A stretch of 64,000 bases of DNA, from positions 5,726 through 69,725 of the IMG/VR virus record IMGVR_UViG_3300032456_000002; one strand, given 5' to 3'. This stretch comes from a virus. This document shows positions 9,408 to 61,557 of the stretch, piece after piece. Both the position numbers and the translations under genes were made by a program. Position 1 is the first letter of the stretch. Every line of letters begins with the position of its first letter. The notes under the pieces were generated by a model. It was not told the origin of the DNA and made no database searches. It saw only the letters and a program-made list of their open reading frames with translations.

Positions 9408-9532
9408 AGCCGATTCCTAGAATAGTAGGTCTGTGGTCAGCGATCGCCAAACCTCTGATAAAGGATGCGATCGCGCTCCCATAATTCTACCGCACGTTCT
9501 CGCCAAAATAGTCTGTATTCGCATTGACAGGA

Positions 9533-10728
9533 TTAAAGCTGCCAACGTCTGTTAGCCCCTGTATCCAAATGGGAGATACCGTTGGCATAAAATCCCAGCC
9601 CTCCGTCCCATATAGGATCTAGCAGTCGATAAGCCTCAACACTGGATAGCGGATCAACCCAGAAGTCGATCGCCCCTCCAGACAAGTGAGTGGAATTAGA
9701 TACGCCGCCTGCATAGCTATTCCAAGGTTCAGGGCGATACCATGACGTGATCTGGATTTGCTGTTTAGTGCGCTTCTGTAACAGTGGCTTAACTTCTTGC
9801 TCAAACCGTCTTGCAATCTCCATGATGTTGCCAACATGACTACCGCCTGGAATGCGAGTGCCGTTGTGCGTTGCCATCCCCCATGTGAGGAAACCGCCAC
9901 TACCCATGATGGGAATGATAAGGGTGTCAGTTGTGACTTTGCCGATGCGAGGGATAAATACTTCCTTGCCAGTGACAGCCCCCACCGAATCTACTGGATT
10001 ATTGGCGTAGAGCTTACCGCCCTTGGATATCTCCACGTCTTTGCCAAACACCCACAAAGTATTCCTGCCCAAGTATTCCAGTTGCTTACCATTGACTTGA
10101 CCTAGGGTAATCAAGTGATGACCTGCTTCTTTTTCTAGGGCGATCGCCGCGATATTCAGGATTGCACCTTTGCTGAATGCAATCATTTCTGCTGCTGATA
10201 AATCTTTTGAGGATGCAGGGCGTGACTTGAGGAAGCTTGAAAACTTGAACGTGAGGGTAAAGTTTGCGGTTGTCGTCATGGGGTTTGCTCGTTTTAGGAA
10301 TAAATCTCTTTCGGCTGCACGTCGCCTTTCCAACCCTGGCAAGATTTTGTCATCGCCACGCACCCACATCAAAAAAGCGGTACTAGCGGCAGCGCGATTG
10401 CCTGCGATCAATTCATTGGCAACAGTAGAACCCGCAAATGCACCCATCCCAATATTGAAGGCGAGGGAAACCAATGCAGCAAATTCATTTTCATTCAGCG
10501 ATACGCTCATACTCATAGCCCAAAAAGCGATCGCATCCTCAAAATACTTCAAGTCTTTTTGCAGCAAGGAATAGGCTTCAGCTTGGGTGATACGTTGCCC
10601 CAGCATTACTCCGTTGGTATGCCCATAGCCAATGGTGGGCACTCCTACCGGATCTGTGTAGGCAATCAGCAGACACCCTTCAAAGTGTTTTATTAACTCT
10701 AGTCCGGCTTGATTGATTTGAATTGCCA
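9533..10728 (-). CDS. endolysin: GH24 lysozyme plus C-terminal peptidase M15
   Basis: IKHFEG..AYTDPVGVPTIGYGH..GLERRRAAE; ITSWYR..N..GG..S.H..G.AID..HLD; start at MAIQINQAG. Confidence 0.9.
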
Positions 10729-10814
10729 TAGCTTCACACAAATAGGAATGCTTATATTTTTAGCGAGGGTATGATTGAATTGTAGGTTCTATTTTTCGCC
10801 ATTGGTCTTTTCTC

Positions 10815-11420
10815 ATGCCTGAAGCCACAGATCAACCCATAGATAAACAGCTTGATAACATCGAAGGCTTATCCAAAAAGATTGACTTCAGCACCGCAGA
10901 CCTCAAACCTTATATTGACGATTTCCACAGCAGGCTAGACCAACAGGCTCAGTCGCTTGCAGATCTGTCTTTAAGGCAAATCGAAACCTCAAGGCAAATT
11001 GCGACCCTTTACGAACAGTCGAATCGAATGCAATCGGTATCAGACAATAGCCAACAGGCGATCGATAATGTGGCGGCAATTCGGCTACATCTTGAAAGCA
11101 CTGATGAAGCTGTGGCGAATACCCTGCCTGAGATTGGCAAGAAGGTCGAACGGAATGCCCGCTTGGTTGACCTGTTGAATGATAGGAATATCAATTTGTT
11201 TAAGTGGCTAGGGGGAATTGTCGTCGTCTCTTTTGTATCAAGTATCCTATGGCAATCCCTCCCCCAAGAAGATCGAACGGATTTAGCTAGACGTTTTTTT
11301 GTTCCTTTGGCGACGGTCGCTGGGGGTAGCCTGGTTGGTTATTATTTCCTGAACAGCGGCTCTACGAATAACAATTCTTTGGAAGATTCCAATACTGGGA
11401 AATCAGATGACACAAAGTAG
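10815..11420 (+). CDS. coiled-coil protein with two C-terminal TM helices (holin candidate)
   Basis: two hydrophobic segments; divergent from endolysin. Confidence 0.45.
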   Translation: MPEATDQPIDKQLDNIEGLSKKIDFSTADLKPYIDDFHSRLDQQAQSLADLSLRQIETSRQIATLYEQSNRMQSVSDNSQQAIDNVAAIRLHLESTDEAVANTLPEIGKKVERNARLVDLLNDRNINLFKWLGGIVVVSFVSSILWQSLPQEDRTDLARRFFVPLATVAGGSLVGYYFLNSGSTNNNSLEDSNTGKSDDTK

Positions 11421-12478: not shown

Positions 12479-13243
12479 CTAGTCGAATTCAAAACCCATT
12501 TGACCTGGGCTAGATTGATCTCGTTTGCCTGTTCTGCAATTTTGCCGCATCCGTTGGTATCGGAAGTACTCCACAGACTCTACCTTGATTATCTCTGGGC
12601 ACAGCTCAACCTTTGCTCCACTAGCAGATCTAAAGCTGAGAATCAAAATTGAGAATGCAGCCAGTGTCATCCATAGTTGATCGTCGTCATCCTTCACCCA
12701 GTGCTCAAACTCGTTAAAGTTTCTCAGCAGTGCCTCTCTGACCTGAGATTTTTTGACGATGCCGGATGCCTCGTGCAAATAGTTCAGAGGAATTTGAAAG
12801 TGAGAAGCAGGGCGATCGCCTTCTTTGGGTTCGGGCTTGGCTCCAAACTTGGCTTGATAGTCGGCAGCTAGGAGGGCAGCAGATGAACGGCGTAATTCCT
12901 GCGAGAATCGACTGCGACCCATGTAAGCCAAATAAATCAATCCAGCCATCCCGCTTGAAGGGGTTTCCTGAAAACCGTCCCTCCCATCTACACGGGTATA
13001 CTTCGTTACTTCCGTAAAACGGAGGATACCAGAATCAACTTCTATCAAGTCTTTCCAGGTTTGGGTGGTGTTTTTATTTCCAAAGAACATCTTCAAGAAA
13101 TCATAGACAGAATGCTTCCCGTCTTGACTTCTAATACTGCCATCCGCGATCGCATCTTCAATTTGCCCAATCAGCTGCTTCAGAACTGCTTGATGCAGTG
13201 AAACGCCAAACTCTTGAACTTGTGAGAAAATAGTTTCAGCCAC
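12479..13243 (-). CDS. antirepressor-like DNA-binding protein
   Basis: SVYDFL..TWK.L N-terminal domain; shared leader upstream; ends QMGFEFD. Confidence 0.55.
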   Translation of the reverse strand: MAETIFSQVQEFGVSLHQAVLKQLIGQIEDAIADGSIRSQDGKHSVYDFLKMFFGNKNTTQTWKDLIEVDSGILRFTEVTKYTRVDGRDGFQETPSSGMAGLIYLAYMGRSRFSQELRRSSAALLAADYQAKFGAKPEPKEGDRPASHFQIPLNYLHEASGIVKKSQVREALLRNFNEFEHWVKDDDDQLWMTLAAFSILILSFRSASGAKVELCPEIIKVESVEYFRYQRMRQNCRTGKRDQSSPGQMGFEFD

Positions 13244-13308
13244 TTCATTACCTGCGTAGTGATTTTGGTCAGCAGTCGTCTGAGGAGTAAACTCGTTCGG
13301 CTGCGTCT

Positions 13309-16300
13309 TTGTGCTATTTTACAATGTTTTCCTCACTAAAACCTACTGCAATCGCAAGAATATTAACGCCTTCAACGAAACGGTTTAGAATAGCGATGTT
13401 GATGTTTTTGCGAGATACACACATGGAAAGCCGCCAATTATCTGAAGATCTACAATCCTTGGGTGTGAATATTACCGAGGATGAGATCAAAGAATTAGCG
13501 GCTTTCCATTTCTATCTAAAAACTCAGAACCAATCACGCCTTGCAGAAACCCCGATCGCCTTTGACCCCGACGACATTGAGGGCGGCAAAACATTAGGCA
13601 GCATCATTGGTGGTGTAATTGGTATCGGCTTATCATTTGTTTTGCCAGGGATAGGACTAGCAGCGGGTTTGGCGATCGGTAGTGCGATCGGGGGATTAGC
13701 TGGGGCTGCATTTGCCAAGCCACCCAAAGGGGCAGAGCCGGACGATCAATCAGCCAATCGACGCAGCGCCAAAAGCTATGGCATCACGGCATCTAAGGGA
13801 TTAGTAGAGGTAGGGAATCCTGTCCCTTTTATTTTCTGCAACCGCGATCGCAATGTAAATGGTGGGGTGCGATTCAGCGGGCAGCTAATAGCATCTTGGA
13901 TTGATACCCTCAAGGGTGTGCAGCATCTTCACGAACTATATGTGGCGTGTCTAGGCAAGGTGGGTGGGATTAGCTCGGCAGAGACGTTGTTGGACGGGCA
14001 AGCCTTAGATAATTTTCTTTTTAATGAGGTCGTGATTGACCAGCGGTTGGGCACTGCCGCGCAGACCGCGATGGCGAACTTTCCGTTTTATACGCAGGTT
14101 GTATCGCCATCGCTGAAGAATCAGCTCGGGTTGGACATGCGATCGATTGTTGCCGAAGTGAAGGTGAAGCGGAAGGAAACTATCGCAGATAAGCTTGTGT
14201 CGAGAAGCATGATTGTGACTCGCACCCCAGATAATTGTCGGGTAAAAAAGTCGGGAGCAGCAAACGCATCGTTCATAAGTAAGGACAGGATTAGACCAAA
14301 TAAAGACGGCTTTGTTCAGGCGCAAATTCTTAGGGGTAGCTGGCTGCAATATATTGGCATCACTAACGACATTGTGGCGAGTGCATTTCCTCAAGCCTAT
14401 CCGTTTGTATTCCAGTTTGTGAATGCTCAGTTTGCCTGTCGTGTCAATAATGTTGCCGTCACCACCGCCGCAGCCTATATCAAAGAAGATATCTTTACCA
14501 TTGAATACATCAGTGGTGTCGTGGTGTTTAGGCGCAACAGAGCGATCGTTCATACTTCTTTTGCTGCGAGAGTGTACCCAGCAAGGTTGGCAGTACATAT
14601 TCTTGATAATGCCAATGATGCCGATGGGGTAGAAATTAATGATTTGCGAGTGGGCAATAATATCAGTTTCTCTAAGGGCGGCACGAAGCCTGGAATTGGC
14701 ACGGTGTTAGAGCTGCAAGCACCAGAGTTTGACGAAGAAGAAGATCTTACCGAGGCTGAATTATTAGAATCAGCCCGCAACGAAACCGATCAATTCAGCC
14801 CTGCTGAAGTATATTTTGCGGCAGGGCAACAGTTTAGGGTTATCGCTAAAAATTACAACGCTGCAACCATTCAAGCCGATACAGTGCTAAATCTTGGGGA
14901 AGGTGACAAAATCTATGCCCAATGGACTCCTACTTACGAAACCACAAAAAAAGTTACTGAGATTCATGTAAACCTTGTCTGTCGCCTGTTTGCCAGAGAT
15001 GAAAAGAATAGACTTATTAAGCATGGCGTTTTATTCGACTGCTACATTCGCTCTTCTACAATCGGCTGGACGTTTGCCTTCAGAGGGCTTATCTCTAACT
15101 CCAGCGAGGGAGAAGTCAGACGATATTTTAAGCTTAAGAATCTGCCCTATTCCCGCTACAAGATTGAACTTAGACCGCTTAGAGTCGCGAACGCGCAAGC
15201 CGTGATCTGGCGATTTAATGACACTGGTGCGAGGGATACCCGCGACACATCGGCTATTGTAGGCGGCAAAGTAATCCGGTTCGAGACGCAGATTGATGGG
15301 CAATCTACCGTAGCAGATGCTAACAAGATTATTCTTTATGATGAAGCCCTGAAGCCCGCTGTCTCCACTCAACAAGGGGCACCGATCGCCATTACCTCTA
15401 TCAATGAAGTTGTCACAACTGCAACGCCTCCCACATATCCAGACTTTGCATTAACCGGAATTAGCTACTTGGCATCAGAGCGAATCCAAACAGCACCTAC
15501 TCCTAATTTCCTGATGCAGCTAGGTGGTGAGACGAGGGCACATATCTCGGCTGGGGTGATTACAAGCGTTAGTGCCTTGGATTATGGGGTTAGTGCTCCA
15601 CCGATGGGGACAGCCGATCCCGTTCGGTATTTCGATGTCTTCAGGAACCTAGACAAGCACGTTGAATCAGCAGTCTCTGCCACCAACTCAACTCAGATCT
15701 CTACGTTTGTCACAGTGCAGGCAGAAGTAGGCGATCGCTACCTTGTCTATCGCATCGAATCTATCAACTATCTTCCCGATGCTTATGCTTATGTGTTGGG
15801 CGATCCTGATGGTGGTTTAGGGGCAAGGATAGACCGTGATGAATGGCTAGATTATCCGAGCATTGTTAATTCGCGGCAGTATTGCATTGCTAATGCTAAC
15901 TACTGGGATGGTGTGATTGCAACGCTCACTAATTGGCGGCAATGGGCAGCACAAGAGGCGATCGGCTCTAGGGTTTTGCCTTGTCGCATTGATGGCAGAT
16001 TTGGGATGATTCCCGAAACCGAGACCCCTGTCACATTCCTCTTCAACGCTTCCAACGTCTTCAATTACAAAGAAGAATTCCTTGATTGGAGCATGAGCCG
16101 TTGCAATAGTTTGATTGTCAGCTACACCGATGGCAGAGACGAATATAAGACGAAGACCGTCCGCATCCAATCACCTGAAGCCGCGAATGGATTAGAGCCG
16201 TTGGAAGAAAAGGCATTACAGTTGCCCGCTGTCACTAATCGAGGTCAAGCGATTTGGGCGGGTGCATTAGTTTTCAAATCGCCCAGAATTCAAACGCGAT

Positions 16301-29211: not shown

Positions 29212-30018
29212 TTAAGCTGCGGTTTCGTAATCAAAATCAAAATCCATTTGATCGAAACCTTCGTATCGGTTGATAGAGTCCTCCCATTCAGTTAGCGATC
29301 GCGCTTGCTTCATCAAGACAAACATCGCCTGCACATTTTTCTGCATCCGCTCTTTTGCTTCAGCCGATAGAAACTGATGCAGCTTATATTTCCTTCTGCC
29401 ATTGGGTTGAACTGGATTGTCGATATCCATTTGAACTCTCTCAGATGGCTTGACCCAGCGATAAAAGAATTTCCAGTAGAGTTTTCCATTGCGAATATCA
29501 AGCTTGTGCAGTCCTGACAGACGCTCTAGATGAAACTCCAATTCCTTATCAAACATTTCAGACCACGGCTCAGGAATAGACAGGAACCGATAATCACGCT
29601 CCTGCCTAGCTTCCTTGCTTCTGCTTTCGCCCCAAGCCTGATCACAGCGATCGGCTAGGGAGTCTTGCATCAGTAGTTTGGTGTATTGCGCAGCGGTGGC
29701 ATTACCCCATACTGTTTCACAGAACCAAAGAATTGCAACATCTGACAACGAAAGGGTCAAGGCTGTTCTGTATTGCTTCCCATCATGGAATTTGACGGGG
29801 ACTGTAACCCAGGTAAAGCCGTTGTCTGTAAGGGTTTGAGCCTTGTCGGGAGTCCTGGACTTCATCGCAGATAACTGGCTTCGGTGTTTCCCAATCAGAT
29901 CCAACGCTTGCGACTGCGAGAACCGATACTCTTTCGACTCTTTCAATCTAATCGAGTCAAGATTCAGCCCGCCCAATGGCATCTTCGTACTCGTTCCAAG
30001 TAAAATATCTACAGCCAT
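29212..30018 (-). CDS. P63C-like domain antirepressor-family protein
   Basis: PW..MF; RRKYKLHQFL; paralogue of 45976..46779. Confidence 0.75.
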   Translation of the reverse strand: MAVDILLGTSTKMPLGGLNLDSIRLKESKEYRFSQSQALDLIGKHRSQLSAMKSRTPDKAQTLTDNGFTWVTVPVKFHDGKQYRTALTLSLSDVAILWFCETVWGNATAAQYTKLLMQDSLADRCDQAWGESRSKEARQERDYRFLSIPEPWSEMFDKELEFHLERLSGLHKLDIRNGKLYWKFFYRWVKPSERVQMDIDNPVQPNGRRKYKLHQFLSAEAKERMQKNVQAMFVLMKQARSLTEWEDSINRYEGFDQMDFDFDYETAA

Positions 30019-30131
30019 GAGTCTAAGTCCTGTTTAGGTTTGTGGTCAGCGATCGCTCTTCCTGGAAGAATTGTGATCGCGCCCCTAAATATTATCACGC
30101 TCTCACTAAAGCATTCAGTTTTTGCCTAAGC

Positions 30132-34560: not shown

Positions 34561-34911
34561 TGGAACACAGTGAGCATGTGCTGTGCCCATCAAAACGCAC
34601 CATAGACTGCTGTTGGTATTGATGTTAATAGCGATCGCCGTTCCCAGACAAAACTCTTCACCTTCTGATTCAATTAATACAATGCTAAAAGGAATAATGC
34701 CTTGCTGTTGAATCCCTATCTTTGGGACGATTGACAGCAAGGCATTCTTATGAAAGGAATCCTGAGTGGGATGTAAATCGTACACCCATTGGGCATTGAT
34801 GGTAGGTAGGTTGTACTCTGCCCTAATCCAATTGACTAGCGTGAAACAGTCCCATGATTGCCATTGGAAGGGGGTAGTGGGGAGCGGTTTAGCGAGGATG
34901 TGATTAAACAC
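34507..34911 (-). CDS. NlpC/P60-like tail assembly protein
   Basis: PF.W..WDCFTLV..R. Confidence 0.6.
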   Translation of the reverse strand: MFNHILAKPLPTTPFQWQSWDCFTLVNWIRAEYNLPTINAQWVYDLHPTQDSFHKNALLSIVPKIGIQQQGIIPFSIVLIESEGEEFCLGTAIAININTNSSLWCVLMGTAHAHCVPLSRLPIAGVTAWMPNEA

Positions 34912-34994
34912 TGTTTTAGTGCGAGAGTGGTAAGATTGTGGGAGCGGATCGGTTGACAGCCGATCCTGATCAAAACTCTAAAAGGACTAGAATC

Positions 34995-35774
34995 TTGACT
35001 ACCACTATTAAAGCAGTTCGAGGATTGGTTGCGTTGGGCGATATTCCACTGAATGTCTATATGTTGCCCAATGGAGAATATAAATTGGCAGGGCGCAATG
35101 TAACGGATGCGATCAAAGAGCACGCCATGAGCCTATCACGCCTAATGGGTGTTAAAAGCCTGAAAGACTTGCCCCATGCAGATTTAAGCCTGTCACAAAT
35201 TAAGGCAAAAACAGGAGAAACGTTCATCCCTGTTTCGCTATTAGACGCTTCTGAGTATTGGCTTAGGGCTGCGATTGAAGGCAATCCAATGGCAAAGGCT
35301 ATTTCGATGGCTTGCATGGTGGAATCAATCGAAAGGAGAGCCGATGCATTCTTTGGTGTGAATCGAAGTGAAGGCGATCGCAACCGTCGCGTCAAGACTC
35401 TAATCGATTCAATCCTTTCAGATCCAAAACCTTGGACAATGCACTTTAACCCAAGATGGCAGAGAGAGGCTTGCAGAGTGACTGGGTATCGGTGGGAAGC
35501 CTCTAGACCAATGGCGCAATTCATCAGCACCTACATCTACAAAGCTCTCCCATCTGATGTCTACGAAAAGCTAATGGAGATCAACGCCGAACGAAAGCAA
35601 CGCCATCACCAGTTTTTTGATGAACTAGCAGACGAGATTATTCTGAAGGAACATATCCAACAGGTTGGCGGGCTGCTGAGAGTCTCCAAAAATAAGCCAC
35701 ATTTTAAGCAATTATTCTCCGATGCTTTTAGCGATGGGATTCAATGTGATTTCGACTTTGAGCAAACAGCTTAA
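34995..35774 (+). CDS. P63C-like domain antirepressor-family protein
   Basis: V.MLPNGEY, RAD.FFG, PW..HF, RHHQF; start moved to TTG after the shared leader. Confidence 0.7.
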   Translation: MTTTIKAVRGLVALGDIPLNVYMLPNGEYKLAGRNVTDAIKEHAMSLSRLMGVKSLKDLPHADLSLSQIKAKTGETFIPVSLLDASEYWLRAAIEGNPMAKAISMACMVESIERRADAFFGVNRSEGDRNRRVKTLIDSILSDPKPWTMHFNPRWQREACRVTGYRWEASRPMAQFISTYIYKALPSDVYEKLMEINAERKQRHHQFFDELADEIILKEHIQQVGGLLRVSKNKPHFKQLFSDAFSDGIQCDFDFEQTA

Positions 35775-45859: not shown

Positions 45860-45975
45860 CGTTCTTGCGGAAATTGAAAGCTTTAGCTTGAACGATGATA
45901 AGATTTAGGAGCGCGATCGCAGTTCTTGGGAGAGAAGAGCGATCGCTGACCACAGTACTTTAGAGAACAAAGCAA

Positions 45976-46779
45976 GTGACTAACGAAATTTTAACCGGAA
46001 CTAGCGTCAAACTGCGGTTCCTTGATATGGAGCTTGATTCTATTCGGTTGACAGAATCAAAGGAGTACCGCTTTTCTAAATCGCAAACGTTGGCGGCAAT
46101 TGGGAGAAACAGAGACTATCTAGCCGTGTTGGCGAAAAAATCCCCTAACAAGGTTCAAACCCTTACCAGCAAAGGCTTTACCTGGGTTGGCGTTAAGGTG
46201 AAATTCCATGACGGACTCCAGTATCGTCATGCTGAAACCCTTTCGCTTGCTGACGTTCGCATCTTTTGGCGTTGTGAAGATCGGTGGGGCAATCCGACCG
46301 CAGCAGATCTAATCGATATTCTTTCAGAAGATTCGTTATCCGATCGCTGCGATCAGGTATGGGGCGAAACCCGAAGTGAAGAGTCTCGGCATGAGCGCGA
46401 TCGTCGGATGTTTGACACGCCAGAAGTTTGGAGCCTGATGTTTGACCGTGAAGTTGAGTATCATCTTGCTCGGCTGTCTGGGCTTCACAAGAGAGACATT
46501 CGCAACGGGAAAATATATTGGCAATTCTTCTATCGTTGGATGACTCCCGACGAACGAGTTCAAATGGATATAGACAATCCCGTTTTATCCTGCGGACGGC
46601 GTAAATACAAGATCCATCAGTTCTTAACCCCTGAGACAAAAGCCAGGATGCAAGTTCACATTCGTGCAGTCTTTACCTTGATGAAAACCGCTAGGGATAT
46701 GACCGACTGGCGACGGTTGATGATGTGCTACGAAGGTTTTGATCAAGGCGATTTTGATTTTGAATACGAAGCCGTTTAA
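45976..46779 (+). CDS. P63C-like domain antirepressor-family protein
   Basis: close paralogue of 29212..30018. Confidence 0.75.
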   Translation: MTNEILTGTSVKLRFLDMELDSIRLTESKEYRFSKSQTLAAIGRNRDYLAVLAKKSPNKVQTLTSKGFTWVGVKVKFHDGLQYRHAETLSLADVRIFWRCEDRWGNPTAADLIDILSEDSLSDRCDQVWGETRSEESRHERDRRMFDTPEVWSLMFDREVEYHLARLSGLHKRDIRNGKIYWQFFYRWMTPDERVQMDIDNPVLSCGRRKYKIHQFLTPETKARMQVHIRAVFTLMKTARDMTDWRRLMMCYEGFDQGDFDFEYEAV

Positions 46780-48774: not shown

Positions 48775-48799
48775 TGGGAAGCTGGTTTTGGTGGTGGTG

Positions 48800-49058
48800 G
48801 TGCCACTTCGCTTTATATCTCAGACCTTCTGCAACTTTTAAGAAGGAGTTGACTACGAGCGACCATCTGCCTCGCAGTGCCACTTAACTTTACATCTCCT
48901 GACTTCTGCAACCATCTTATCTTGAAAGTCGGGGAAAGAAATATTAGGGTGCCACTTAACTTTACATCTCCTACCTTCTGCAACCAAAAAGCTCGATAGC
49001 CTTGCGAACGATCTCACCCTGGGTGCCACTTCGATCAGAGCCTCCGACCTTCTGCAAC
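48800..49058 (-). CRISPR. mini CRISPR array: four 36-bp repeats and three spacers (41, 36, 38 nt), plus a degenerate repeat end at about 49084..49093 with a 25-nt spacer
   Basis: repeats at 48800..48835, 48877..48912, 48949..48984, 49023..49058; minus-strand consensus GTTGCAGAAGGTCGGAGATGTAAAGYKAAGTGGCAC with conserved ends. Confidence 0.9.
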
Positions 49059-49099
49059 CGCATGAGCCTGATGGTAGACCGGGGTGCTACATCTCAACA

Positions 49100-49271
49100 C
49101 GAAGGTTCAATCGCTTTGTGGTAGCTAGAATAAGTACTCTAAGGTTTGCGAGGTTCGGAGGATGAAAAAGAAGTAGAGAGGCAACGCCCCTAAGCCATGA
49201 CTGCTGCATTCCCGAAGGTGCGACGCTATCGTTATCCTGCTCGGCTCACAAAAGCAGTTGTCAACATTGTA
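49100..49271 (-). ncRNA. putative tracrRNA
   Basis: anti-repeat at 49144..49178 (+ strand GTTTGCGAGGTTCGGAGGATGAAAAAGAAGTAGAG resembles the minus-sense repeat); lies between effector and array; ends approximate. Confidence 0.65.
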
Positions 49272-50597
49272 TCAAGGTTCTGCCAAAATGCGATCGCCAT
49301 CCGCAGCTTTTTGTTTGAGCAATGCCCTCAATCTACCAGTCCTCAACCTTGTTACTTTTTTGTTGAATCTGGCAACCCTTTCGGCTCCATTGGGTGCATA
49401 AACAGCAGGCTCAACATCAATAGGTATCGGTTCTGGCTTGGGGATGGGCTTAGTTTTGGCGGGTTGCAGTTCAATTTCTCCATAGGTGCGAACGATGAAT
49501 GTAGATAACTTGTGAGCGTGTTGGTCTGCACCTTTCGCAATTTTCCATTCAACACGTTTGATTTGTTTTCGTAACTCTAGTTCATTCTTTGACTGCGGAA
49601 TGTGCAACCCTAATTTATTGGAACGATTCTGTCTAACGCTTTGCTTCTCCGCTAGTTTTAGTTGCAGTTTCTCCAATTGCTTCGAGAGCTTCAAATTTTC
49701 AAAGGGCTTCACCTCTTTACCTTTGTCATCCCGATAAAGCAGATTCTCAACCCTTGGAAACTCTAAAGAACATTTACGATCGCTTGGTTTGAGTTCAACT
49801 TTAGGCAATTCCCCGGTTAGCTGAAGTTGCCAAAAACCAGGAAGGTTACAAACTTTCAAAACGCAGATCTCTACGTCTGTCCAAACTTTTGCCGACTCAG
49901 GCATGACAATCAGTCCCAGACCAGGAACCCTGATTTGTCCATCTTTGACTTTAATACTTTTAGCGTCGTTACTGACTAGCGTAGACAGTCCGTTACGAAT
50001 GCCCTTAAATCTGGGTTCTCCCATTCGCCCCGACTTATGTTCCTTCCATGCGATCGCCAATGATGCCAGCGTTCCCCGGACGAAAACACTGGGTACTTTC
50101 TGTAGTTCCGCCCACTCTGGGTTCGCCTTTTGGGAGAACATCGCAGACAGGCTAAACGCTGAAGGTCTATCTAAGCGCGGCTCAACGTATGGCAGCGGCA
50201 ACGGACAGCAAGGGCGATAAGGGCGGCGGTAACTATCGAATGATGTGCATGGAGTATATGGAACGGGCACCCATTTAATTTTTGCGGCTGGCTCCACTGG
50301 CTCAAGAGGTTTATCAGTTTTCTTCTTCGCCTTTTTGCTTTTCGTTGCGCCGTTGGCAGGAATGAAACGATACTTCCAAGGAGCAATCACTATACCATCC
50401 TTATCAACCCCTCCAAAAATCGGCATTGATGGATATCTAGTTTTGTCGTACTTGTTCCAAGTGGAATAGCGATCGCACTCTAGAATAAGTTCTAGAGCCT
50501 GATTCCAAACTCTACGCAGCGCCTCAAACCATTGTTCTGTAAGTGCTAACTGAGCAGGATCTAATTTGATTGTGTAAGTTATAGTTTTCATATCCAT
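49272..50597 (-). CDS. TnpB-derived type V (C2c8/V-U2-like) effector, predicted nuclease-dead and truncated
   Basis: MKT..Y.I..Q..W..LR.VWN, PRFK, VPGLG, HKLSTF.VRTY, Y.PNGA; RuvC-I GID is SLE, RuvC-II E is Q; no Zn finger or RuvC-III. Confidence 0.85.
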   Translation of the reverse strand: MDMKTITYTIKLDPAQLALTEQWFEALRRVWNQALELILECDRYSTWNKYDKTRYPSMPIFGGVDKDGIVIAPWKYRFIPANGATKSKKAKKKTDKPLEPVEPAAKIKWVPVPYTPCTSFDSYRRPYRPCCPLPLPYVEPRLDRPSAFSLSAMFSQKANPEWAELQKVPSVFVRGTLASLAIAWKEHKSGRMGEPRFKGIRNGLSTLVSNDAKSIKVKDGQIRVPGLGLIVMPESAKVWTDVEICVLKVCNLPGFWQLQLTGELPKVELKPSDRKCSLEFPRVENLLYRDDKGKEVKPFENLKLSKQLEKLQLKLAEKQSVRQNRSNKLGLHIPQSKNELELRKQIKRVEWKIAKGADQHAHKLSTFIVRTYGEIELQPAKTKPIPKPEPIPIDVEPAVYAPNGAERVARFNKKVTRLRTGRLRALLKQKAADGDRILAEP

Positions 50598-50689
50598 CGC
50601 CTAGTAATAATAGGTTAGTGGTTAGCATAGCTGAGTAGATTGAAGTCTATCAGCTATGCGTTTGAGATTCACTGCGAAATGGGCTGGAT

Positions 50690-50800
50690 CTATTCTCCGA
50701 TCAGCTTTTGGCGATCGCCATTGGTCAATAATCGATAGGCTTCATCTAGGAATTCTTTGGGGACATATTCAGCCGTTACGGTTCGAGGCGTTTGAGCGAT
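50690..50800 (-). pseudogene. orphan antirepressor C-terminus (..NGDRQKLIGE*)
   Basis: same terminal peptide and near-identical DNA as the end of 8583..9407; out of frame with the upstream gene. Confidence 0.7.
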
Positions 50801-51393
50801 TAAGTCGCCACATAATGAGTCATCTTGATATGAAGAGGTTTGCAGTGCTTTTCGATCAAGAGAAGAGAATCACTATGACAATCACCAAAAAGATGAATTC
50901 TTTTCTTATGGCTGGGGTAATACAGGGAATAAACCAAAACCTGTCCAATTGCGGCTTTCCATGAGTCAATACGCTTTACCTCTATCACCTCTGTTGATGT
51001 AAGCAGGTCTATGTTTCCAGCGGGTGTCAAAACTTCCCTTTGTCCTCCCACCTCTCTCTTCAGTTCGTTTGTCACGACTGATTCAGTTAGCCTACCCTTT
51101 GGGCGATCGCCTTTGTGTCGAGAGACGGAGGTAAGATAGTCTACCTGCTCCTGTGTGAGTAAGACAAAAGTCGTCTCATTGACCGCCCCTACTGAGTTTG
51201 TGACAGTTCCGATATTAAATCTTAGGTTCCCAAACCTTTGCTCTACTCGCTCTCGATGCTTGCGAATCGTTTTAATAAAGGACTCGTGCTGAATCCCTAA
51301 GCGATCGGCAATTAGCCTGGAGTCTACAAGCAGAGTCCCATCTTGTTCAACAATGGATAGAGCGGTCGAACTTGGTACAATGTTAGAAGTCAT
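50800..51393 (-). CDS. Rha-like N-terminal domain fused to PD-(D/E)XK-like nuclease domain
   Basis: VDSRLIA..LGIQH; G.IDLLT..EVIEVK...WK.AIGQ.LVY. Confidence 0.75.
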   Translation of the reverse strand: MTSNIVPSSTALSIVEQDGTLLVDSRLIADRLGIQHESFIKTIRKHRERVEQRFGNLRFNIGTVTNSVGAVNETTFVLLTQEQVDYLTSVSRHKGDRPKGRLTESVVTNELKREVGGQREVLTPAGNIDLLTSTEVIEVKRIDSWKAAIGQVLVYSLYYPSHKKRIHLFGDCHSDSLLLIEKHCKPLHIKMTHYVAT

Positions 51394-51490
51394 GATTCTA
51401 GTTCTCTTAGATTTGTGGTTAGCCCCAGGTTCCCGCCTGGGCACTCCAGTAATATTAACGCAAATACCCACAGCAAAAGCACGAACAAGA

Positions 51491-51898: not shown

Positions 51899-52161
51899 TG
51901 GCACTAGAATTTACGATGATTGATCTGAATCTAGAGATATCGGAAAAGGACAATGCAGGGTTAGCAGAAATTTTGAACGAGGCGCAAAACAAAAACCTTT
52001 TACCCACAAGGAATCTTATAGGGTTCTGTTGTCGCAGGGTTGGATGGTATGGTCTTTCGGAAGGATATGGAGATTGGAACTATCCTCACTGTCTTACCAC
52101 GAAAGGTGGGGTGATTCCCTATTCTTTTCGCGGTTTGATCAATGCACTGAAGGGGAGTTGA
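51895..52161 (+). CDS. small hypothetical protein
   Basis: ORF between two tail genes. Confidence 0.45.
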   Translation: MMALEFTMIDLNLEISEKDNAGLAEILNEAQNKNLLPTRNLIGFCCRRVGWYGLSEGYGDWNYPHCLTTKGGVIPYSFRGLINALKGS

Positions 52162-52165
52162 TCTA

Positions 52166-53313: not shown

Positions 53314-53437
53314 GTTTGACGTTAACGCAAAAAATGAGTGTTTTAGCGAGGGAGTGGTAAGATTTAAGGGCGCGATCGCCATTCCTTAGAAGAAGAGCGA
53401 TCGCTGACCACAGACCTATTATTGCTAGGAATTGGCT

Positions 53438-54190
53438 ATGAGTATTGTACCTTTTGATTTCAATGGTTTTGAGCTTCGGACTTTAGGAACATGGGATGCA
53501 CCGCTTTTTGTGGCTGCGGATGTTTGTAAGATTCTGGAGATTAAGAATGTTTCGATGGCTTGTGAGTGCTTGGATGAAGATGAAAAGGGCATCTATAGCG
53601 TCAAGACTCATGGAGGGGGGCAAGACGCGCTCTGTGTTACAGAGCCTGGGCTGTACCGCCTTGTATTTAAATCTCGCAAGCCGATAGCAAAGGTTTTCCA
53701 AAAATGGGTGTTCTCCAAATTGCTGCCATCTATTAGAACCCAATCTCTTTCGGGTGATTGGGTCATCAAAAAGCTCAACGAGATACAAGAGTCGCAGTCT
53801 GAATTAATAGAGATTGCATCAGCCTCAATGGAGTCAGTGTACAGAGACCGTTTAGCCGATCTACTAGCCGGAGCTACTGAGGTGCAATCGTATATCAGCG
53901 CTTTTGCCACGCTAGAAGAGAGTGATGTTGCTGTTGCTGTCTTCGCTGACGTCGTGACGGACGTTGCAGTGATTGAAGTGAAATCGTTTGCCTTGTGGAA
54001 ACAAGCACTAGGACAAGCCCTGGTTTACAAGAAATGCATCAAGTTTTCGGAGAAAGAACCGGGGGTATATTTATTTAACTGCCCCAAAGACAATCGGTTG
54101 CGAGACGTGTTTTCTATTTTTGATGAGTATGAAATCGAGTTTTGCTATTACACGTTCACTGGAGAATCTGAAATCAGAAGGATGCTATAA
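53438..54190 (+). CDS. BRO-N domain fused to PD-(D/E)XK-like domain
   Basis: PLFVAADVC.IL, EPGLYRLVFKSRKP.AK.FQKW; DVVTD..VIEVK...WKQALGQ. Confidence 0.85.
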   Translation: MSIVPFDFNGFELRTLGTWDAPLFVAADVCKILEIKNVSMACECLDEDEKGIYSVKTHGGGQDALCVTEPGLYRLVFKSRKPIAKVFQKWVFSKLLPSIRTQSLSGDWVIKKLNEIQESQSELIEIASASMESVYRDRLADLLAGATEVQSYISAFATLEESDVAVAVFADVVTDVAVIEVKSFALWKQALGQALVYKKCIKFSEKEPGVYLFNCPKDNRLRDVFSIFDEYEIEFCYYTFTGESEIRRML

Positions 54191-57300: not shown

Positions 57301-60300
57301 TTTCGCTTCAGTCATTCTCCGCAACGGTTCATGGATGAGGTCAATCATTTCATCCAAACCGCCAATGAAATCTCCAAAGAATCTATCAGAGAATCCTGAT
57401 AGATTGCGTTGAATATCATTCTTAGTATTTTGTATCTGCGTATCTAGATCTTGAGCCTCAATAGTTCTGCCAATCTCAGCTATGCTCTCCCCAATCCCTT
57501 TGACAAAATCACTAATCTCTCTAGTGGTTTGCTTGATAGATTCTTGCGCTTGCTGCTGTGACTCTGCCAATTGCGTAGAGGCTTGAGCCGATTGGGTTTG
57601 TAATTGCTCTAGCTGTGCCTTTTGGGTCTGAGCCTGCTGCAGAATCTTAAATTCTTCTGAATCGCGATCGCCCGAAAAGTCTGCAATGTATTGTCCAATC
57701 TCACTGGAGTTTGAACCACTCGATAAGCCTGATATTCCGAATGCTCTAGATGTGGCGGGACTTTGCAGCAGATTGTTGAGTTGCAGCATTGTGGCATTGA
57801 GCGTTTCAATGCTTTGAATCTGTGTGGCTTGGTCGCTAAGGTTTGACGCGGATTGAGCTTGCCCTGGTGTGAGTTGTCCATTGGTTTGGGCAATGGCGAT
57901 CGCCCCTTGCCTTTGGGCAGAACCTAATGCGTTTTGATTGGAGCGAAACTCTGAAGTGGTATTGATGGCTTGCAGTTGCGACTCTAATCTTGCCGCACCA
58001 GAGATAGCCGTGTTGATGGCTTTGGCGTAACCCTGTAGCCCCTTCTCTCCTTCTGCAATTTTGGCGTTGTTGATATTGAGTTGCGACTGTAATTGCTTTA
58101 AATCAGAAGGGTTAAGGTTCCCCTGACTCATGAGCGCTTCTATTTGCTTATTAGAAGCTTTGTAGCCTTCCACCGCTCTTTTGATTTGAGCAGGCAACGC
58201 ATTGACTTCAGCCGCCAATTGTTCCCGCTCCTTAGTCATGGCTTGGTATTGCTTGTCAATTTCAGCTCTACCCGCATCATCTCCAGACCCCAACATTCCG
58301 CGCTTGGCTTGCAAGTCACGCATCTGAACATCGGCAGCCCGCATTTCTTGAAGCTTGCCACCGCCTTGACTAAACTCCTTCAGGGCTTTCGTCATATCTG
58401 CCATGATGCGATCGTTGGCAGGTGCAGCCGCTTTACTCTGGGCTAAGATATCTCGCCCTTCCTTCTGTTGCCTGGTAACGAAGTTTGGATTACTCGCGTC
58501 GGCGCCTTCGTTATTCCAGAACGATCGATCAAACGGAGAACCTTGAAACTTAGTGCTTCTACCCTGAAGCACTTCAGCTTCACGAAGATACTTAGTTCCC
58601 GCATCACCAAACATCCCAGTAATCGCCCCACCGATCATTGTGTCTTCCGCATAACTCTTAGGTAGACTTTCGACTGATTGTTTGAGCAGGTCTGTCTTAT
58701 CTGTTGCCTCTCCAATGATTCTTAGATATTCTTTTAGCCCGTCTACTGATGATTTGGCGAAGTCTTTGGTGGCTCCCTCGGTTTCGCTAAACTGCATCGA
58801 CAGCATTTTTAAGCCATCCGCGATCGCCACAAAGATTAAAGCTTGGGCAGCCAATGGAGCAAATGCTACAGCCGCCTTCAGCATCGTTCCCGGCAACATC
58901 AAAAGCCCTTTGCTTAATGCTCCAATCCCTACCCCGGCGGTGATGGCATTAATCCCCATCCCCAATAACGCCTTAGTTCCAAACCCGATCGCCGCTGCTG
59001 CGACTACTGGCAATATCACTCCCAACGCCTGCAACGCGACAGTCAAAGCCCCCAACCCGAAACTCTGCACAGGCAACAACGCCTTACCAAAGCTGACCTG
59101 CATGGCATAGATTTCATTATTAAATCTATTCATCGAAGCTTGGGCAGAGTTCGCCGCGCCAGCTACCCCGGTCGAAGTTTCAGATTTTAACTGTGATGCA
59201 AACTTAACCATCGCATCCGTTCCAACCTCACCCCGCTGCAACATGTCATCTAATTGCGTAGACGTGACACCAATAGACCGTGCAAATATCTGGAATGCCC
59301 CTGGCAATACGTCTCCAAGCTGCTGCCGCAATTCTTCTGCCGAAACTTTACCCTTACTTGCCATTTGAGCTAAGGCTCTATTGACGCGATCGGCTTCCTC
59401 TACGTTTAGCCCAAAGACTGCTGACGCTTGTCTTGCCGCACTGCCGATTTGGTCGGTTGCCGCTCCTTCCAATGATGTGCCTTTGGTGGCGGCAGCTAGT
59501 TGCGCTTGACCCGCGATCGCACTCTTAAAGTTGCCACCTAATGCCTTGGCTTCAGCGCTTAATCCTTTCAATGTGTCTTGAGTTTTGGAGGCGCTGCCAG
59601 TGACAAAATTTAGTTGTCGTTCAAACTTTTCAAACTCTAGCCCCGCCATTAAAGCTTGTTGACCTGCATTCGTAATGCCAGTCACGATGCCCTCTAACGC
59701 CTGTATTCCAAAGAATGCAGAGCTTAGTTTTAAGGCTCCAGAAAGCTTGGCGAAACTCCCTTGAGCCGCACCAAATTTCTTCTCTGCATTCTTCAGAAAC
59801 TCATCAATAAAATCATCTGCATCACTGAAGCCATGCAGACCTAACTCGAATCCCTTGCTAACTAGCTGCCCGAACCCTTGGAATACGCGAGATGGCGATC
59901 GAATCCCTAGCTTTTTCTTGGTCGATTTGATTACGACGTCAGCCATGAATCCCGACGCTTGAGCTACAGAAGAGCTACCCGATTTAATGCCATCAATCAA
60001 CCCATCGCTGATAGCCCTACCTGCACTTTTCGCCCCTGCAACATTTGAGCGAGAAGCGCCACCACTCACAGCCCCAATACGAATATTGCCTAAACTCTTT
60101 AACTCCTTCGCCTCCACTACTAACGATCGAATCTTGGACGTTGTGGCATCCAATGTTTTATTAAGCGCAGTTAAGGCGCGATCGTCTACCAACGGACGGA
60201 TCACATTGGACTTAAATAACTGCACTGTCTCTTTGAGATGCTTGCCTAGGTCGGTAAGTTGGCGATCGTCTACCGTGGCTTTAATCTTGATTGCTGTGTT

Positions 60301-60387
60301 TGCCTGACTGCTACCAAACCTCTTAAGGTCTCGCATTACCCCGCTGAGGTCTAAGCCAGTGCCAATCGAAATAGAAGCAATTTCCAT
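54361..60387 (-). CDS. tail tape measure protein with CHAP/NlpC-like and lysozyme-like domains
   Basis: LGI.SPSRVF; QMASKGKV.AEELRQQLG; QCANFV..HTGI; A.QESSL..GDRDSVGLFQQR; GEY.M. Confidence 0.92.
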   Translation of the reverse strand: MEIASISIGTGLDLSGVMRDLKRFGSSQANTAIKIKATVDDRQLTDLGKHLKETVQLFKSNVIRPLVDDRALTALNKTLDATTSKIRSLVVEAKELKSLGNIRIGAVSGGASRSNVAGAKSAGRAISDGLIDGIKSGSSSVAQASGFMADVVIKSTKKKLGIRSPSRVFQGFGQLVSKGFELGLHGFSDADDFIDEFLKNAEKKFGAAQGSFAKLSGALKLSSAFFGIQALEGIVTGITNAGQQALMAGLEFEKFERQLNFVTGSASKTQDTLKGLSAEAKALGGNFKSAIAGQAQLAAATKGTSLEGAATDQIGSAARQASAVFGLNVEEADRVNRALAQMASKGKVSAEELRQQLGDVLPGAFQIFARSIGVTSTQLDDMLQRGEVGTDAMVKFASQLKSETSTGVAGAANSAQASMNRFNNEIYAMQVSFGKALLPVQSFGLGALTVALQALGVILPVVAAAAIGFGTKALLGMGINAITAGVGIGALSKGLLMLPGTMLKAAVAFAPLAAQALIFVAIADGLKMLSMQFSETEGATKDFAKSSVDGLKEYLRIIGEATDKTDLLKQSVESLPKSYAEDTMIGGAITGMFGDAGTKYLREAEVLQGRSTKFQGSPFDRSFWNNEGADASNPNFVTRQQKEGRDILAQSKAAAPANDRIMADMTKALKEFSQGGGKLQEMRAADVQMRDLQAKRGMLGSGDDAGRAEIDKQYQAMTKEREQLAAEVNALPAQIKRAVEGYKASNKQIEALMSQGNLNPSDLKQLQSQLNINNAKIAEGEKGLQGYAKAINTAISGAARLESQLQAINTTSEFRSNQNALGSAQRQGAIAIAQTNGQLTPGQAQSASNLSDQATQIQSIETLNATMLQLNNLLQSPATSRAFGISGLSSGSNSSEIGQYIADFSGDRDSEEFKILQQAQTQKAQLEQLQTQSAQASTQLAESQQQAQESIKQTTREISDFVKGIGESIAEIGRTIEAQDLDTQIQNTKNDIQRNLSGFSDRFFGDFIGGLDEMIDLIHEPLRRMTEAKGTIAGMNQQLAQTGRQGSDLIRNSASGGNGFVPGMGGSALGGSVAELALGREGTEFREGVAAQCANFVRDVFSQAGIELGVTNAPVDGIATSAGFANSLFGRDIGEIITDPLKLVAGDIVGFRNTYQGDWGADAITHTGIYTGNGMMIDRSTSSAPVRHRPLDTFDMTGFVAVRPNAFAAAGGNVGNASTPPATSMSASSAAIGAGNYGGVTLNEEQVRNAAIIAKVGRDLGVSPRDIQIAIATAMQESSLVNLTGGDRDSVGLFQQRSSMDWGTNAQIMNPEHSARSFFQGAGTNPGLLDIQNRGSMSVTQAAQATQRSGHPDAYAKWEGMSAELAGRLSGGGAGGTAINTPGANTSAIDPALTQYGAAIAQQTDSIMSRMEAQNEGSTIALRQRMQASRQKLEEAQRTLIDETRQYNERYQDSILAAFGDSPIASALQQLTTDSRDVESTTRAMSLTINDATNSLDNLKATRQTILDDPSLAPLKELVPGMDAAIAQYESQIDQIGVARDREQRILSDRRNAIIENLEATGREQLKALSQQTEDLQIQQQAGLVKDPQLAAMLQGRSQRMEVSRSFESESGAIVSEIAKISGGIERLKSEALAAGSVIDPLQLEVATGQLDNLKDRLDALSVNRDLKLQLIDVEQIELLRQFNKESEQALTGAQLESLNTQGDVFGANQLQFLQGKLELVSELQTRLTSINQLEQQQLGTAGFDPSVFTKMREEAISLSEVSFQNLAQQFPDLAQTINDTAFQAFQGLGSSISSLVMGTGSLEDAFDSFSSTVINQLVNMGLQWASSELFSSFQGSGRSGGGGIMEAILGGGTGRSGGDTIGSILSTGVSLFGSLGGFDNGGMIPGRFSGKPDQHIARVNPGEYIMQRSSVQKYGSATMRSINMGSFDKGGMVGSDRATYKDYSSKSESGGSREPIKVEYEVTRINEQNFVTEEQLRRSLTATSQETEKRMNRSMRNSPSYRGGIGI

Positions 60388-60539
60388 GAGTCAGCGTCTA
60401 AACGTCCTGAACTTAGTGTAGTTCACGCGCTTAGGAATACTGAGTGTTTTAGCGAGGTGGTGATAAGATTTGAGGGCGCGATCGCATCCTTTGTAGAGGA
60501 AGGCGATCGCTGACCACAGTACTTTAATGAGCAAAGCAA

Positions 60540-61557
60540 ATGGCTAATGCGATTGTAAGCTTCTTCGATCAGTTCCCGACATACGAAGGGCATCAGGTTG
60601 AGATCCGAGGGAAGGACGGCTATTTTTGTGCTACGGATATGAGCGATATTCTTGAGAAGCGCTTTACCGATTGGCGTAAGACTCAGTTTGAATTCTGAAA
60701 CTGGCTTGTAGTAAGTGTTACAATAGAAGAGCGCGGGCAGCTAGACGTCGAAAGTCTGACCACCCGCTAAACACAAAATCTAATGAGGTTAGATTTCATG
60801 GATAGACTAATGATACAGTTTCTTGTTAACTTTCCTGAGTATCAAGATCTGTGCCTTGAAGATTTGCCGTATAACGAACGCAAAGAATGTGCATTCAAAA
60901 TGCTTGCATTTTCGGTTGATGCGGCAAAAGCAAAAGTTTTTGACTTAGAATTTCTTTGGGTTGCTGCCGAGTTAGGGCGGAATCTAGATCCGATGGATGC
61001 CTACGTTTTGAAAATGCTGTGGTCAGCTTCTCATCAATGGTGCTTTAATTTGTTTGCACATGATGCAACGGCTCGCGGATCACTTGTCCAACAGGTTTAT
61101 TTTGCAGGGAGGGGTAACACCGTTAAGATCGGTATTTCTGTAGATCCAAAAGCTAGAATCAAGAGCCTACAGGTATCGTCGCCACACCCCATCGTCCTAT
61201 TGGCAACTCAAGATGGTGGTAGGAAGGTAGAGCAAGAGCTACATCAACAATTCAAAGACGATCATATTTTGGGAGAGTGGTTTAATCTGTCTCAACCAGT
61301 CAAGCATCACATTGACTCCCTGCAAGACCCCGCTCGTAGACTACGTTAGAGGTGATGGGCAAAAGATGTGGATTCATCCAGCCCTCGCAATGTCTTACGC
61401 CATGTCTAACCCAGAGTTCCAAGCAGACATTAACGTTTGGATCTACGAACTCATGACAATCGGCACAGTCAATCCACACGTCCTTAAGTGGTCTGCTGAA
61501 GAATACCAGCGGGGCTTAGAATTCAACCGCGATGACATTAAGGACATGTACGGCTAG
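60540..61557 (+). pseudogene. KilA-N gene split by an inserted cassette (5' part 60540..60698, 3' part about 61327..61557)
   Basis: IR.KDGYFCATDM...KRF.DW then stop; resumes ..VRG.GQ..WIHP.LA..YA..NPEF. Confidence 0.75.
60798..61349 (+). CDS. GIY-YIG / T5orf172-domain protein
   Basis: VYF...VKIG.S.DP..R...LQ, E..LH..F....GEWF. Confidence 0.85.
   Translation: MDRLMIQFLVNFPEYQDLCLEDLPYNERKECAFKMLAFSVDAAKAKVFDLEFLWVAAELGRNLDPMDAYVLKMLWSASHQWCFNLFAHDATARGSLVQQVYFAGRGNTVKIGISVDPKARIKSLQVSSPHPIVLLATQDGGRKVEQELHQQFKDDHILGEWFNLSQPVKHHIDSLQDPARRLR

Follow-up and report, generated by a model that had tools for sequence, protein, structure and literature searches.

We examined a 64,000-nt stretch of viral DNA (hereafter the window), which comprises bases 5726-69725 of a 69,725-base virus record (IMG/VR record IMGVR_UViG_3300032456_000002; linear class, estimated to be 67% complete), and in which ten scattered genes stand behind a common leader that consists of a predicted promoter, a stem-loop and the heptamer TRACCAC. 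Genes were recognised for portal, large terminase, head protease, major head protein, a tail protein of 2051 aa that is partly lambda-J-like, a tape-measure-like protein of 2008 aa and an endolysin, and further for a RusA-like resolvase, a DNA methyltransferase and helicases. With about one copy expected, the HIP1 octamer is present 93 times, which indicates a tailed phage of a HIP1-rich cyanobacterium, and, judged from its sequence, the source is a siphovirus-like cyanophage. A near-identity search with 24 kb against a phage collection returned no match, and no integrase was found among the proteins scanned, which make up part of the proteome.

The leaders and the genes behind them are listed below, together with the mini CRISPR array that accompanies one of them. 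Two covariance models were built from the leaders, R1 from seven copies and R2 from all ten, and E-values marked R1 are those of copies left out of that model. Pair counts out of eight come from a register-optimised count, L126, L127 and L129 are contigs related to the window, and X2 and X4 are runs with such contigs, all of which are treated further below.

Leader 1, 9405..9500, minus strand: -10-like hexamer and two-HIP1 hairpin with TRACCAC (9430-9474); DinD/Bro-N gene 8583-9407; folding z-score -2.26, 50.6 bits.
Leader 2, 13241..13336, minus strand: upstream box, -10-like hexamer, non-HIP1 hairpin with one mismatch and a motif variant (13262-13304); gene of 254 aa without family, 12479-13243; z-score -0.12 (the weakest), 42.2 bits.
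Leader 3, 30016..30111, minus strand: upstream box, -10, near-HIP1/HIP1 hairpin with TRACCAC (30039-30080); P63C gene 29212-30018; 59.5 bits; swap in L126, homologue in L129.
Leader 4, 34902..34997, plus strand: two tandem upstream boxes, -10, 7-bp stem of different sequence and a motif variant (34946-34976); TTG start, P63C gene 34995-35774; R1 E-value 0.007; 8/8 pairs.
Leader 5, 45883..45978, plus strand: box-like element, -10, two-HIP1 hairpin with TRACCAC (45913-45956); P63C gene 45976-46779; 59.5 bits; joint from 45932 to 53391 in X2 and X4 contigs.
Leader 6, 50595..50690, minus strand: weak -10, 10-bp non-HIP1 stem with TRACCAC (50615-50659); C2c8-type effector gene 49272-50597; z-score -5.97, 46.9 bits, R1 E-value 4.6; 8/8 pairs.
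Non-coding stretch and four-repeat mini CRISPR array, 48799..49271, minus strand: downstream of the effector gene, part of cassette 6.
Leader 7, 51391..51486, minus strand: -10, 6-bp non-HIP1 stem with a bulge and TRACCAC (51412-51442); ATG 51393, Rha-type gene 50800-51393; R1 E-value 0.12, 45.3 bits.
Leader 8, 53345..53440, plus strand: upstream box, -10, two-HIP1 hairpin with TRACCAC (53372-53414); Bro-N gene 53438-54190; 70.2 bits; gene replaced in L127.
Leader 9, 60447..60542, plus strand: upstream box, -10, two-HIP1 hairpin with TRACCAC (60478-60520); 52-aa KilA-N N-terminal fragment 60540-60698, E 2.8e-5; 59.3 bits; block from 60458 absent in L127.
Leader 10, 60705..60800, plus strand: sigma-70-like promoter with TG-extended -10, 5-bp outer stem around an inner hairpin, motif variant (60733-60777); T5orf172/MUG113 gene 60798-61349; z-score -2.75, 49.2 bits.

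Reading the 130 nt upstream of the ten start codons, we found one layout at all ten sites, in which a -10-like hexamer is followed by a brief purine-rich segment with C as its last letter, a stem-loop, TRACCAC or a variant of it directly 3' of the last stem pair, a purine-rich ribosome-binding stretch and the start codon. Exact TRACCAC directly follows the stem in seven of the ten leaders (9433-9439, 30042-30048, 50618-50624 and 51415-51421 on the minus strand; 45947-45953, 53405-53411 and 60511-60517 on the plus strand), and variants are found in the other three, one letter off at 13243 and 60798 and two letters off at 34995; the leader of 60798 also carries an exact TRACCAC copy inside its stem. 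The distance from hexamer end to stem is 7-11 nt in all ten leaders and 7-9 nt in 18 of the 20 leaders of the window and its relatives, one of which (L078) is without a clear -10 hexamer, and the motif lies 20-26 nt from the start codon in the ten. Many leaders have TG two letters upstream of the hexamer, and most have a 9-nt box seven letters upstream of it. At 51393 and 34995 the leaders favour an ATG and a TTG start codon, respectively, over the longer open reading frames listed, and in two relatives (L122 and L126) the homologous genes begin at the corresponding position. That the elements keep their order and their distances to both -10 hexamer and start codon argues that the module is an expression signal.

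By our own arithmetic, about 4 copies of the 9-nt box in degenerate form would be expected in the record; 14 are present, several of them without a hairpin. These hairpin-less boxes lie at 6112(-), 10759(+), 34888(+), 39008(+), 41733(-), 42346(-) and 47243(-). One such box precedes an 827-aa helicase-like gene, two stand in tandem before leader 4, and three minus-strand boxes are alike over about 20 nt of wider sequence. The box may be an operator or a promoter element of the phage.

When searching for the leader as a unit, we found that TRACCAC alone shows no convincing enrichment (17 matches against 10.6 +/- 3.6 expected, a count reached in 5 of 100 shuffles), while a composite 15-mer of stem end and motif, allowed up to three mismatches on both strands, gives 8 matches against 1.65 expected, which none of 100 shuffles reached. 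Leaders account for five of these eight, and the other three are three-mismatch matches. The sequence-only reading of this DNA had proposed that ten dispersed loci share a promoter-hairpin-TRACCAC leader, and all ten are present: R2 scores them at 38-70 bits, with the next matches at 20.3 bits, a HIP1 hairpin read on the opposite strand, and 13.7 bits. Upon scoring the left-out copies with R1, leaders 34995 (E 0.007) and 51393 (E 0.12) were the best matches apart from the training copies and reverse-strand HIP1 hairpins, and the effector leader at 50597 (E 4.6) was not above noise. Neither covariance model located an eleventh copy in the window or in the whole 69.7 kb record. None of 4227 Rfam models matched the window at the gathering score, a comparison of the leaders by eye with consensus sequences gave no convincing match to a cyanobacterial LexA box or to another known operator, and the hairpin loops show no sequence conservation across leaders. 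The ten sites are one repeat family with fixed geometry.

Next, we consider the stems, which are 5-10 bp long and whose folding z-scores are negative in all ten leaders (-0.12 to -5.97). As had been noticed earlier, five of them (9407, 30018, 45976, 53438 and 60540) each consist of a pair of HIP1 or near-HIP1 octamers spaced 25-27 nt apart; the remaining five have different sequences and retain pairing. Covariation, the lack of which the sequence-only reading had listed among the signs against it, is present, with RNAalifold reporting double-sided changes in five of the six predicted pairs of a plain alignment. Because MAFFT and covariance-model alignments held three stems in a sequence-based register, pairs were also counted over eight levels, fixing the 3' arm relative to the motif and the 5' arm relative to the base of the stem; the registers were picked by eye, which favours pairing. 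Across 17 distinct leaders of the window and its relatives, 94.9% of 136 cells pair under this count, and the pair type changes on both sides at levels 2-8. Among eight distinct stems, 89.1% of cells pair; shuffling the partners gives 58.8 +/- 6.5%, and 2 of 5000 such shuffles come up to 89.1%. Since the anchored registers were chosen by eye, a register-optimising null was run, under which 2.07% of random positions, and 2 of 102 other sites resembling the motif, form 8/8 pairs. In the same count, six of the ten leaders reach 8/8 pairs, including those with the non-HIP1 stems 34995 and 50597, and one reaches 7/8. The earlier claim that pairing is kept where the stem sequence differs holds well for these two independent stems and moderately for the other three non-HIP1 stems. 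A second small hairpin at the ribosome-binding stretch looked compensatory by eye and was dropped.

This combination of structure and motif had been read as an RNA-level regulon, in which one trans-acting factor, an RNA-binding protein of phage or host or a small RNA, would bind hairpin and TRACCAC and switch all ten genes post-transcriptionally. A structured leader that is shared and that also stands before the effector gene fits this proposal, and so does an invariant TRACCAC beside stems that have fully diverged and still pair, which is the pattern of structure-plus-sequence recognition; moreover, phages that are otherwise dissimilar have the leader before genes of the same class. RNA-level or trans control, the other half of the proposal, is not supported by the present results. 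A complementary trans RNA had been suggested, and upon searching the 69.7 kb record none was found except for an 11-nt match inside the T5orf172 gene (61017-61027, plus strand), which is a perfect complement of the stem end and TRACCAC of leaders 1, 5, 8 and 9 and would lie in the mRNA of that gene. About 0.03 such matches are expected in the record by our own arithmetic, and it could have arisen by chance. Against a regulon stand the 15-mer search, which yields no candidate antisense RNA and recovers leaders and three three-mismatch matches from both strands, the lack of an RNA-binding protein among the part of the proteome scanned from a record estimated at 67% completeness, the unconserved loops and the absence of an Rfam family. 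The data do not separate such a regulon from a role in cis only, and we regard it as rather unlikely.

When examining the genes behind the leaders, we found at least six unrelated families, namely Bro-N/DinD, P63C, Rha, KilA-N, T5orf172 and a C2c8-type type V effector. Similarity among the ten proteins is confined to a P63C trio, in which 30018 and 45976 are paralogues at 62% identity and 34995 is 23-25% identical to both, and to a C-terminal stretch common to 51393 and 53438; the proteins being mostly unrelated, whole-gene copying does not explain the common leader. That stretch joins the Rha-type protein (50800-51393) and the Bro-N-type protein (53438-54190) at 39% identity over 49 C-terminal residues, which points to fusion of a single domain with two distinct DNA-binding heads. 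All ten leaders precede accessory genes, and none stands before an identified virion or replication core gene. In five cases (9407, 13243, 30018, 34995 and 45976) a strong hairpin with a T-run comes right after the stop codon; the other five genes have no terminator-like hairpin or lead into another cassette. The neighbour is divergent at four leaders, and at six a co-directional gene lies upstream. Arranged in this way, the units resemble promoter-gene-terminator inserts, complete in themselves, that lie between modules of the backbone.

The sequence-only reading had counted a Cas12-like effector among the leader-headed genes, which fits the protein matches and the surroundings of the gene. 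The 441-aa protein matches the NCBIfam model V_cas_c2c8 over residues 4-437 (E 4.4e-58, 197.5 bits, below the curated cut-off of 350 bits), with weaker matches to TnpB models and to solved Cas12p and TnpB chains, and Pfam recognises only the N-terminal helix-turn-helix of the TnpB family. Its closest homologue (P0002), at 59% identity, is encoded on a 5.3 kb contig. About 210 nt of non-coding DNA separate the gene from an array whose four repeats measure about 37 nt and whose spacers measure 35-40 nt (48799-49058, minus strand). Compared against the whole record, the spacers match their own sites and otherwise give 8-13 nt chance matches only, so the array does not target the leaders. Contig cover in runs X2-X5 is low over 49068-51351, and this was not used as evidence.

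Further along, at 60540-61557 on the plus strand, a KilA-N gene appears to be split. The 52-aa N-terminal fragment behind leader 9 corresponds to positions 3-41 of the 107 in the Pfam KilA-N profile, the T5orf172/MUG113 gene with its own leader follows, and an 81-aa open reading frame without a Pfam match overlaps the end of the T5orf172 gene. This last frame could be the remainder of the split KilA-N gene.

Outside the record, the HIP1-type leader pattern was found in viral contigs as one copy each in G001 (74.8 kb) and G002 (67.2 kb), neither of which has DNA similarity to the window in the loci compared. Among metagenome contigs, 9 of 12 pattern matches are leaders, and the covariance model adds one more on one of these contigs. 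The genes behind the relatives' leaders are Bro-N, Rha, P63C-like or T5orf172 with AntA, or belong to no known family. The 15-mer pattern gave 67 matches in viral contigs, of which only one (L032) is a leader. A gapped HIP1-type pattern searched in one genome per prokaryote species returned 29 matches, none of them leader-like in context. R2 yielded two weak matches, not leader-like, in five cyanobacterial genomes (28.7 and 24.2 bits) and none at E 1e-4 in 151 sampled cyanobacterial genomes, where filters were stricter and only 32 candidates per genome were scored. With helicase and effector as queries no close relatives were found in viral contigs, and the Bro-N protein led to six distant loci. 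Parts of the leader also occur in mixed combinations: in L123 the promoter side of leader 1 is joined to the start-proximal side of leader 3, in L126 the promoter and hairpin of leader 3 are joined to the start-proximal part seen in leaders 6 and 8, and the Rha homologue in L122 has a HIP1-type hairpin in place of the different stem of leader 7.

Comparison with the closest relatives revealed three slots in which the gene has been replaced (53438, 30018 and 45976), each with its 5' junction within the leader or at its end. Around the 53438 slot, L127 and the window are 91-95% identical in the flanks, and the leader is the same through promoter, hairpin and motif (100%), apart from four differences in a loop ahead of the start codon; sequence immediately 5' of the promoter has diverged, a different 240-aa gene stands behind the leader, and identity returns about 27 nt past the stop codon of the window gene. 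In L126 a 34995-type gene occupies the 30018 slot, the 5' switch lying just past TRACCAC and the 3' switch in the conserved last codons. In contigs from two runs of different studies (X2 and X4), 45932 is joined to 53391, and since 23 letters fit both sides, the joint lies inside the hairpin; a 53438-type gene is thereby placed in the 45976 slot, between the helicase and RusA genes, and the X2 contig returns from 54226 to about 46823-46950. A block of 60458-62581 is absent from L127, and its edge is the upstream box of leader 9. The 3' junctions of the replacements have no common element.

These comparisons bear on the possibility that the leaders are functionless leftovers of duplication, copied with their genes as upstream DNA and homogenised by gene conversion. 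Such a history would suit the five HIP1-type leaders, which are near-identical over 50-80 nt, as well as the 62% identity of the 30018 and 45976 paralogues and the mixed combinations of leader sub-parts. It is countered by the mostly unrelated genes behind the leaders, by diverged copies that have kept pairing through double changes together with motif and spacing, and by the L127 leader, whose core is 100% identical against 91% in the flanks and lies next to diverged DNA upstream of the promoter. We consider this history very improbable.

The same junctions would also suit a site that acts at the DNA level. It could be an operator that covers the transcript start, or a place where cassette nucleases or an IS200/IS605-type single-stranded DNA enzyme land or cut, with homing moving the cassettes. 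Nuclease-type domains do occur in several cassettes (T5orf172/MUG113, and the C-terminal stretch common to 51393 and 53438), a T5orf172 cassette with its own leader sits inside the KilA-N gene, replacement junctions fall at the leader, and the stems are without a sense-strand G-U bias. However, stem sequence varies between copies, which makes a single sequence-specific palindrome binder unlikely; the fixed distance to the -10 and the start codon suits an expression signal and not a recombination site; no transposase- or integrase-type enzyme is linked to the sites, and a common element is lacking at the 3' junctions. On balance a DNA-level site appears quite improbable.

Taken together with the swaps at the leader, the comparative data point to a portable expression module and exchange junction rather than to an RNA regulon. 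We think it probable, though well short of certain, that the leader is a promoter and 5'-hairpin module resembling the promoter-early stem-loops (PeSLs) of other phages, which heads moron-like cassettes and serves as their recombination junction. The module would consist of a host-type promoter, whose -10 is often TG-extended, whose -35 is poor and which mostly has the 9-nt box upstream, followed by a stem-loop beginning at about the predicted transcript start, the single-stranded TRACCAC, and a short purine-rich ribosome-binding stretch with the start codon. Each copy would head one moron-like unit, made up of the promoter and leader, a single accessory gene and, in many cases, a terminator. 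Being repeated, the module would act as a homology patch for cassette exchange by recombination, within and between related phages, and different genes would be found in one slot behind one leader because the leader is such a patch.

We infer that the promoter is active and that transcripts carry the stem at their 5' end. Given the usual distance of 6-8 nt from hexamer to transcript start, transcripts would have their first nucleotide 0-3 nt ahead of the stem. An mRNA whose 5' end lies only a few nucleotides from a stem is shielded from 5'-end-dependent decay, as in E. coli ompA-type leaders and Gram-positive stabilisers, and cyanobacteria possess both RNase E and RNase J; the 5' stem would protect the transcript against decay by either enzyme. 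With modest confidence, we prefer this role as an mRNA 5' stabiliser for the stem; the role of the leader as an exchange junction appears better supported. TRACCAC has been kept while the adjacent stems changed completely, which argues for a sequence-specific function, presumably in expression.

Several points weigh against the portable-module explanation. It does not account for the strict conservation of TRACCAC, and transcript start, promoter activity and the presence of the stem in RNA are predictions. A scan with the sigma-70 consensus, hampered by the poor -35, picked up one of the six leaders in the 18 kb scanned (leader 10). The five HIP1 stems are of common descent, are not independent and count as one, the registers of the anchored count were favourable to pairing as noted, and the stems of 13243, 51393 and 60798 form only 6/8 pairs, as is seen at 44% of random positions. 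The stem mismatches comprise 3 sense-strand G-T cells and 4 A-C/C-A cells, and in view of this lack of a G-U bias the data do not tell RNA pairing from DNA-level pairing. The hairpin at the ribosome-binding stretch is no longer or stabler than in 53 control genes (mean -2.16 vs -2.71 kcal/mol). The exchange evidence comes from metagenome contigs, some of them short, and assemblers can make chimeras at repeats; L127 (14.5 kb) and L126, however, are independent of runs X2 and X4, come from another source and concern different slots.

Among known systems, morons of lambdoid phages are single accessory genes with their own promoter and terminator that lie between conserved backbone genes. Morons are not known to have a common leader sequence, nor is a covarying hairpin with a motif known as part of their definition. 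The free-standing homing endonuclease genes of T-even phages are dispersed, selfish and equipped with their own promoters, and hairpins sequester their ribosome-binding site. The splitting of genes by such insertions, here apparently of the KilA-N gene by a T5orf172 cassette, is a likeness to them, while the main stem in our leaders lies 5' of the ribosome-binding site. 

The closest parallel is the PeSL of T4-type myoviruses, described as a strong host-type promoter with a stem-loop that ends in the ribosome-binding site and start of a variable gene (Arbiol et al. 2010, PMC2839356). PeSLs lie in the hyperplastic regions of these genomes and number about 50 copies per genome, recombination between them explains many differences among close relatives (PMC2839356, PMC4122927), and a published discussion judged them unlikely in one T4-like cyanomyovirus. 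Both elements are small repeated intergenic modules with a host-type promoter, predicted in the present case, and a stem-loop, which end in a Shine-Dalgarno sequence and start codon, both stand in front of non-essential, variable genes, and both form the junction of insertions, deletions and replacements, here at three replaced slots and one edge of a block indel (60458). The likeness is functional and not homologous: the present phage is a siphovirus-like cyanophage and not a T4-type myovirus (69.7 kb, with the lambda-J-like tail protein and the tape-measure-like gene), and the leaders have no sequence relation to PeSLs. Further differences are the copy number of about ten, a fixed stem position where PeSLs have five variable ones, the use of the cyanobacterial HIP1 palindrome in half of the stems, the strictly kept single-stranded TRACCAC after the stem, for which the passages compared describe no counterpart, and the genes, which are ORFans behind PeSLs and here mostly of Bro/KilA-N/Rha/P63C/T5orf172 type with one type V effector. 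In the literature on PeSLs in cyanophages and on cyanophage HIP1 intergenic stem-loops and promoters, we found no description of this leader.

The parallel raises the question of whether the hairpin mainly acts as a terminator or insulator that stops read-through from upstream genes. PeSL stem-loops terminate transcription in a reporter (PMC2839356), and a co-directional gene lies upstream of six of the ten leaders here. However, none of the ten stems is followed by a sense-strand T-run, its place being taken by TRACCAC, a terminator scan reports no sense-strand match at the leaders, and four leaders face divergent neighbours. With no T-run, in which the stems differ from those described for PeSLs, and with nothing upstream to terminate at those four leaders, we attach very little likelihood to this role.

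A further comparison is with the start-associated sequences (SAS) and extended SAS (ESAS) of Cluster K mycobacteriophages, which are siphoviruses; they are a conserved asymmetric motif present in 11-19 copies at the translation starts of some non-structural genes (Pope et al. 2011, PMC3203893). Imperfect inverted repeats whose spacer varies stand in front of about half of the SAS copies, which are suspected to act in expression; this resembles the present arrangement. However, the SAS 13-mer contains the ribosome-binding site and is placed 3-8 nt from the start codon, whereas TRACCAC lies 20-26 nt upstream; the ESAS inverted repeats keep a subcluster consensus, whereas our stems covary; and neither a promoter part nor a role as exchange junction is mentioned there (PMC3203893).

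Bro, KilA-N, Rha, P63C and T5orf172-type genes are among the most shuffled and least understood in tailed phages, and if the portable-module explanation holds, one short module would provide both the expression signals and the exchange points of such accessory genes between related phages in nature. The idea of a mobile regulatory cassette would be extended from T4-type myoviruses to a cyanobacterial siphovirus, and a compact type V CRISPR module would travel as one such leader-headed cassette. The module could be used as a marker for accessory-gene slots in metagenomic phage genomes, and a covarying stem beside an invariant 7-mer offers a small target for work on phage mRNA stability and translation control in cyanobacteria. 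A more far-reaching, though unlikely, possibility is that hairpin and TRACCAC form a dedicated recognition element, either one through which a single factor times or throttles BRO-type nuclease genes, antirepressor genes and the type V effector together, or a landing pad by which cassette nucleases home between slots. If true, this would amount to a gene-cassette system for tailed phages with integron-like logic, in which the structured leader serves as the adaptor.

Upon comparing the relatives, other differences were seen near the leaders and elsewhere. An HNH endonuclease gene (30685-31491) and an overlapping small open reading frame (31481-31810) are absent from L129 (window positions 30674-31805; L129:2960-2983), and L129 has about 940 nt not in the window that adjoin the leader 3 promoter. 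Near the start of the tape-measure-like gene, L127 has about 3.5 kb (L127:7790-11340) where the window has about 0.5 kb (59637-60172). Finally, the window encodes a 462-aa Gp3-like, 'recombination directionality factor-like' protein (6417-7805, plus strand) and a 110-aa helix-turn-helix protein with a likeness to sigma-70 region 4 (36859-37191, plus strand), the latter being a candidate regulator.

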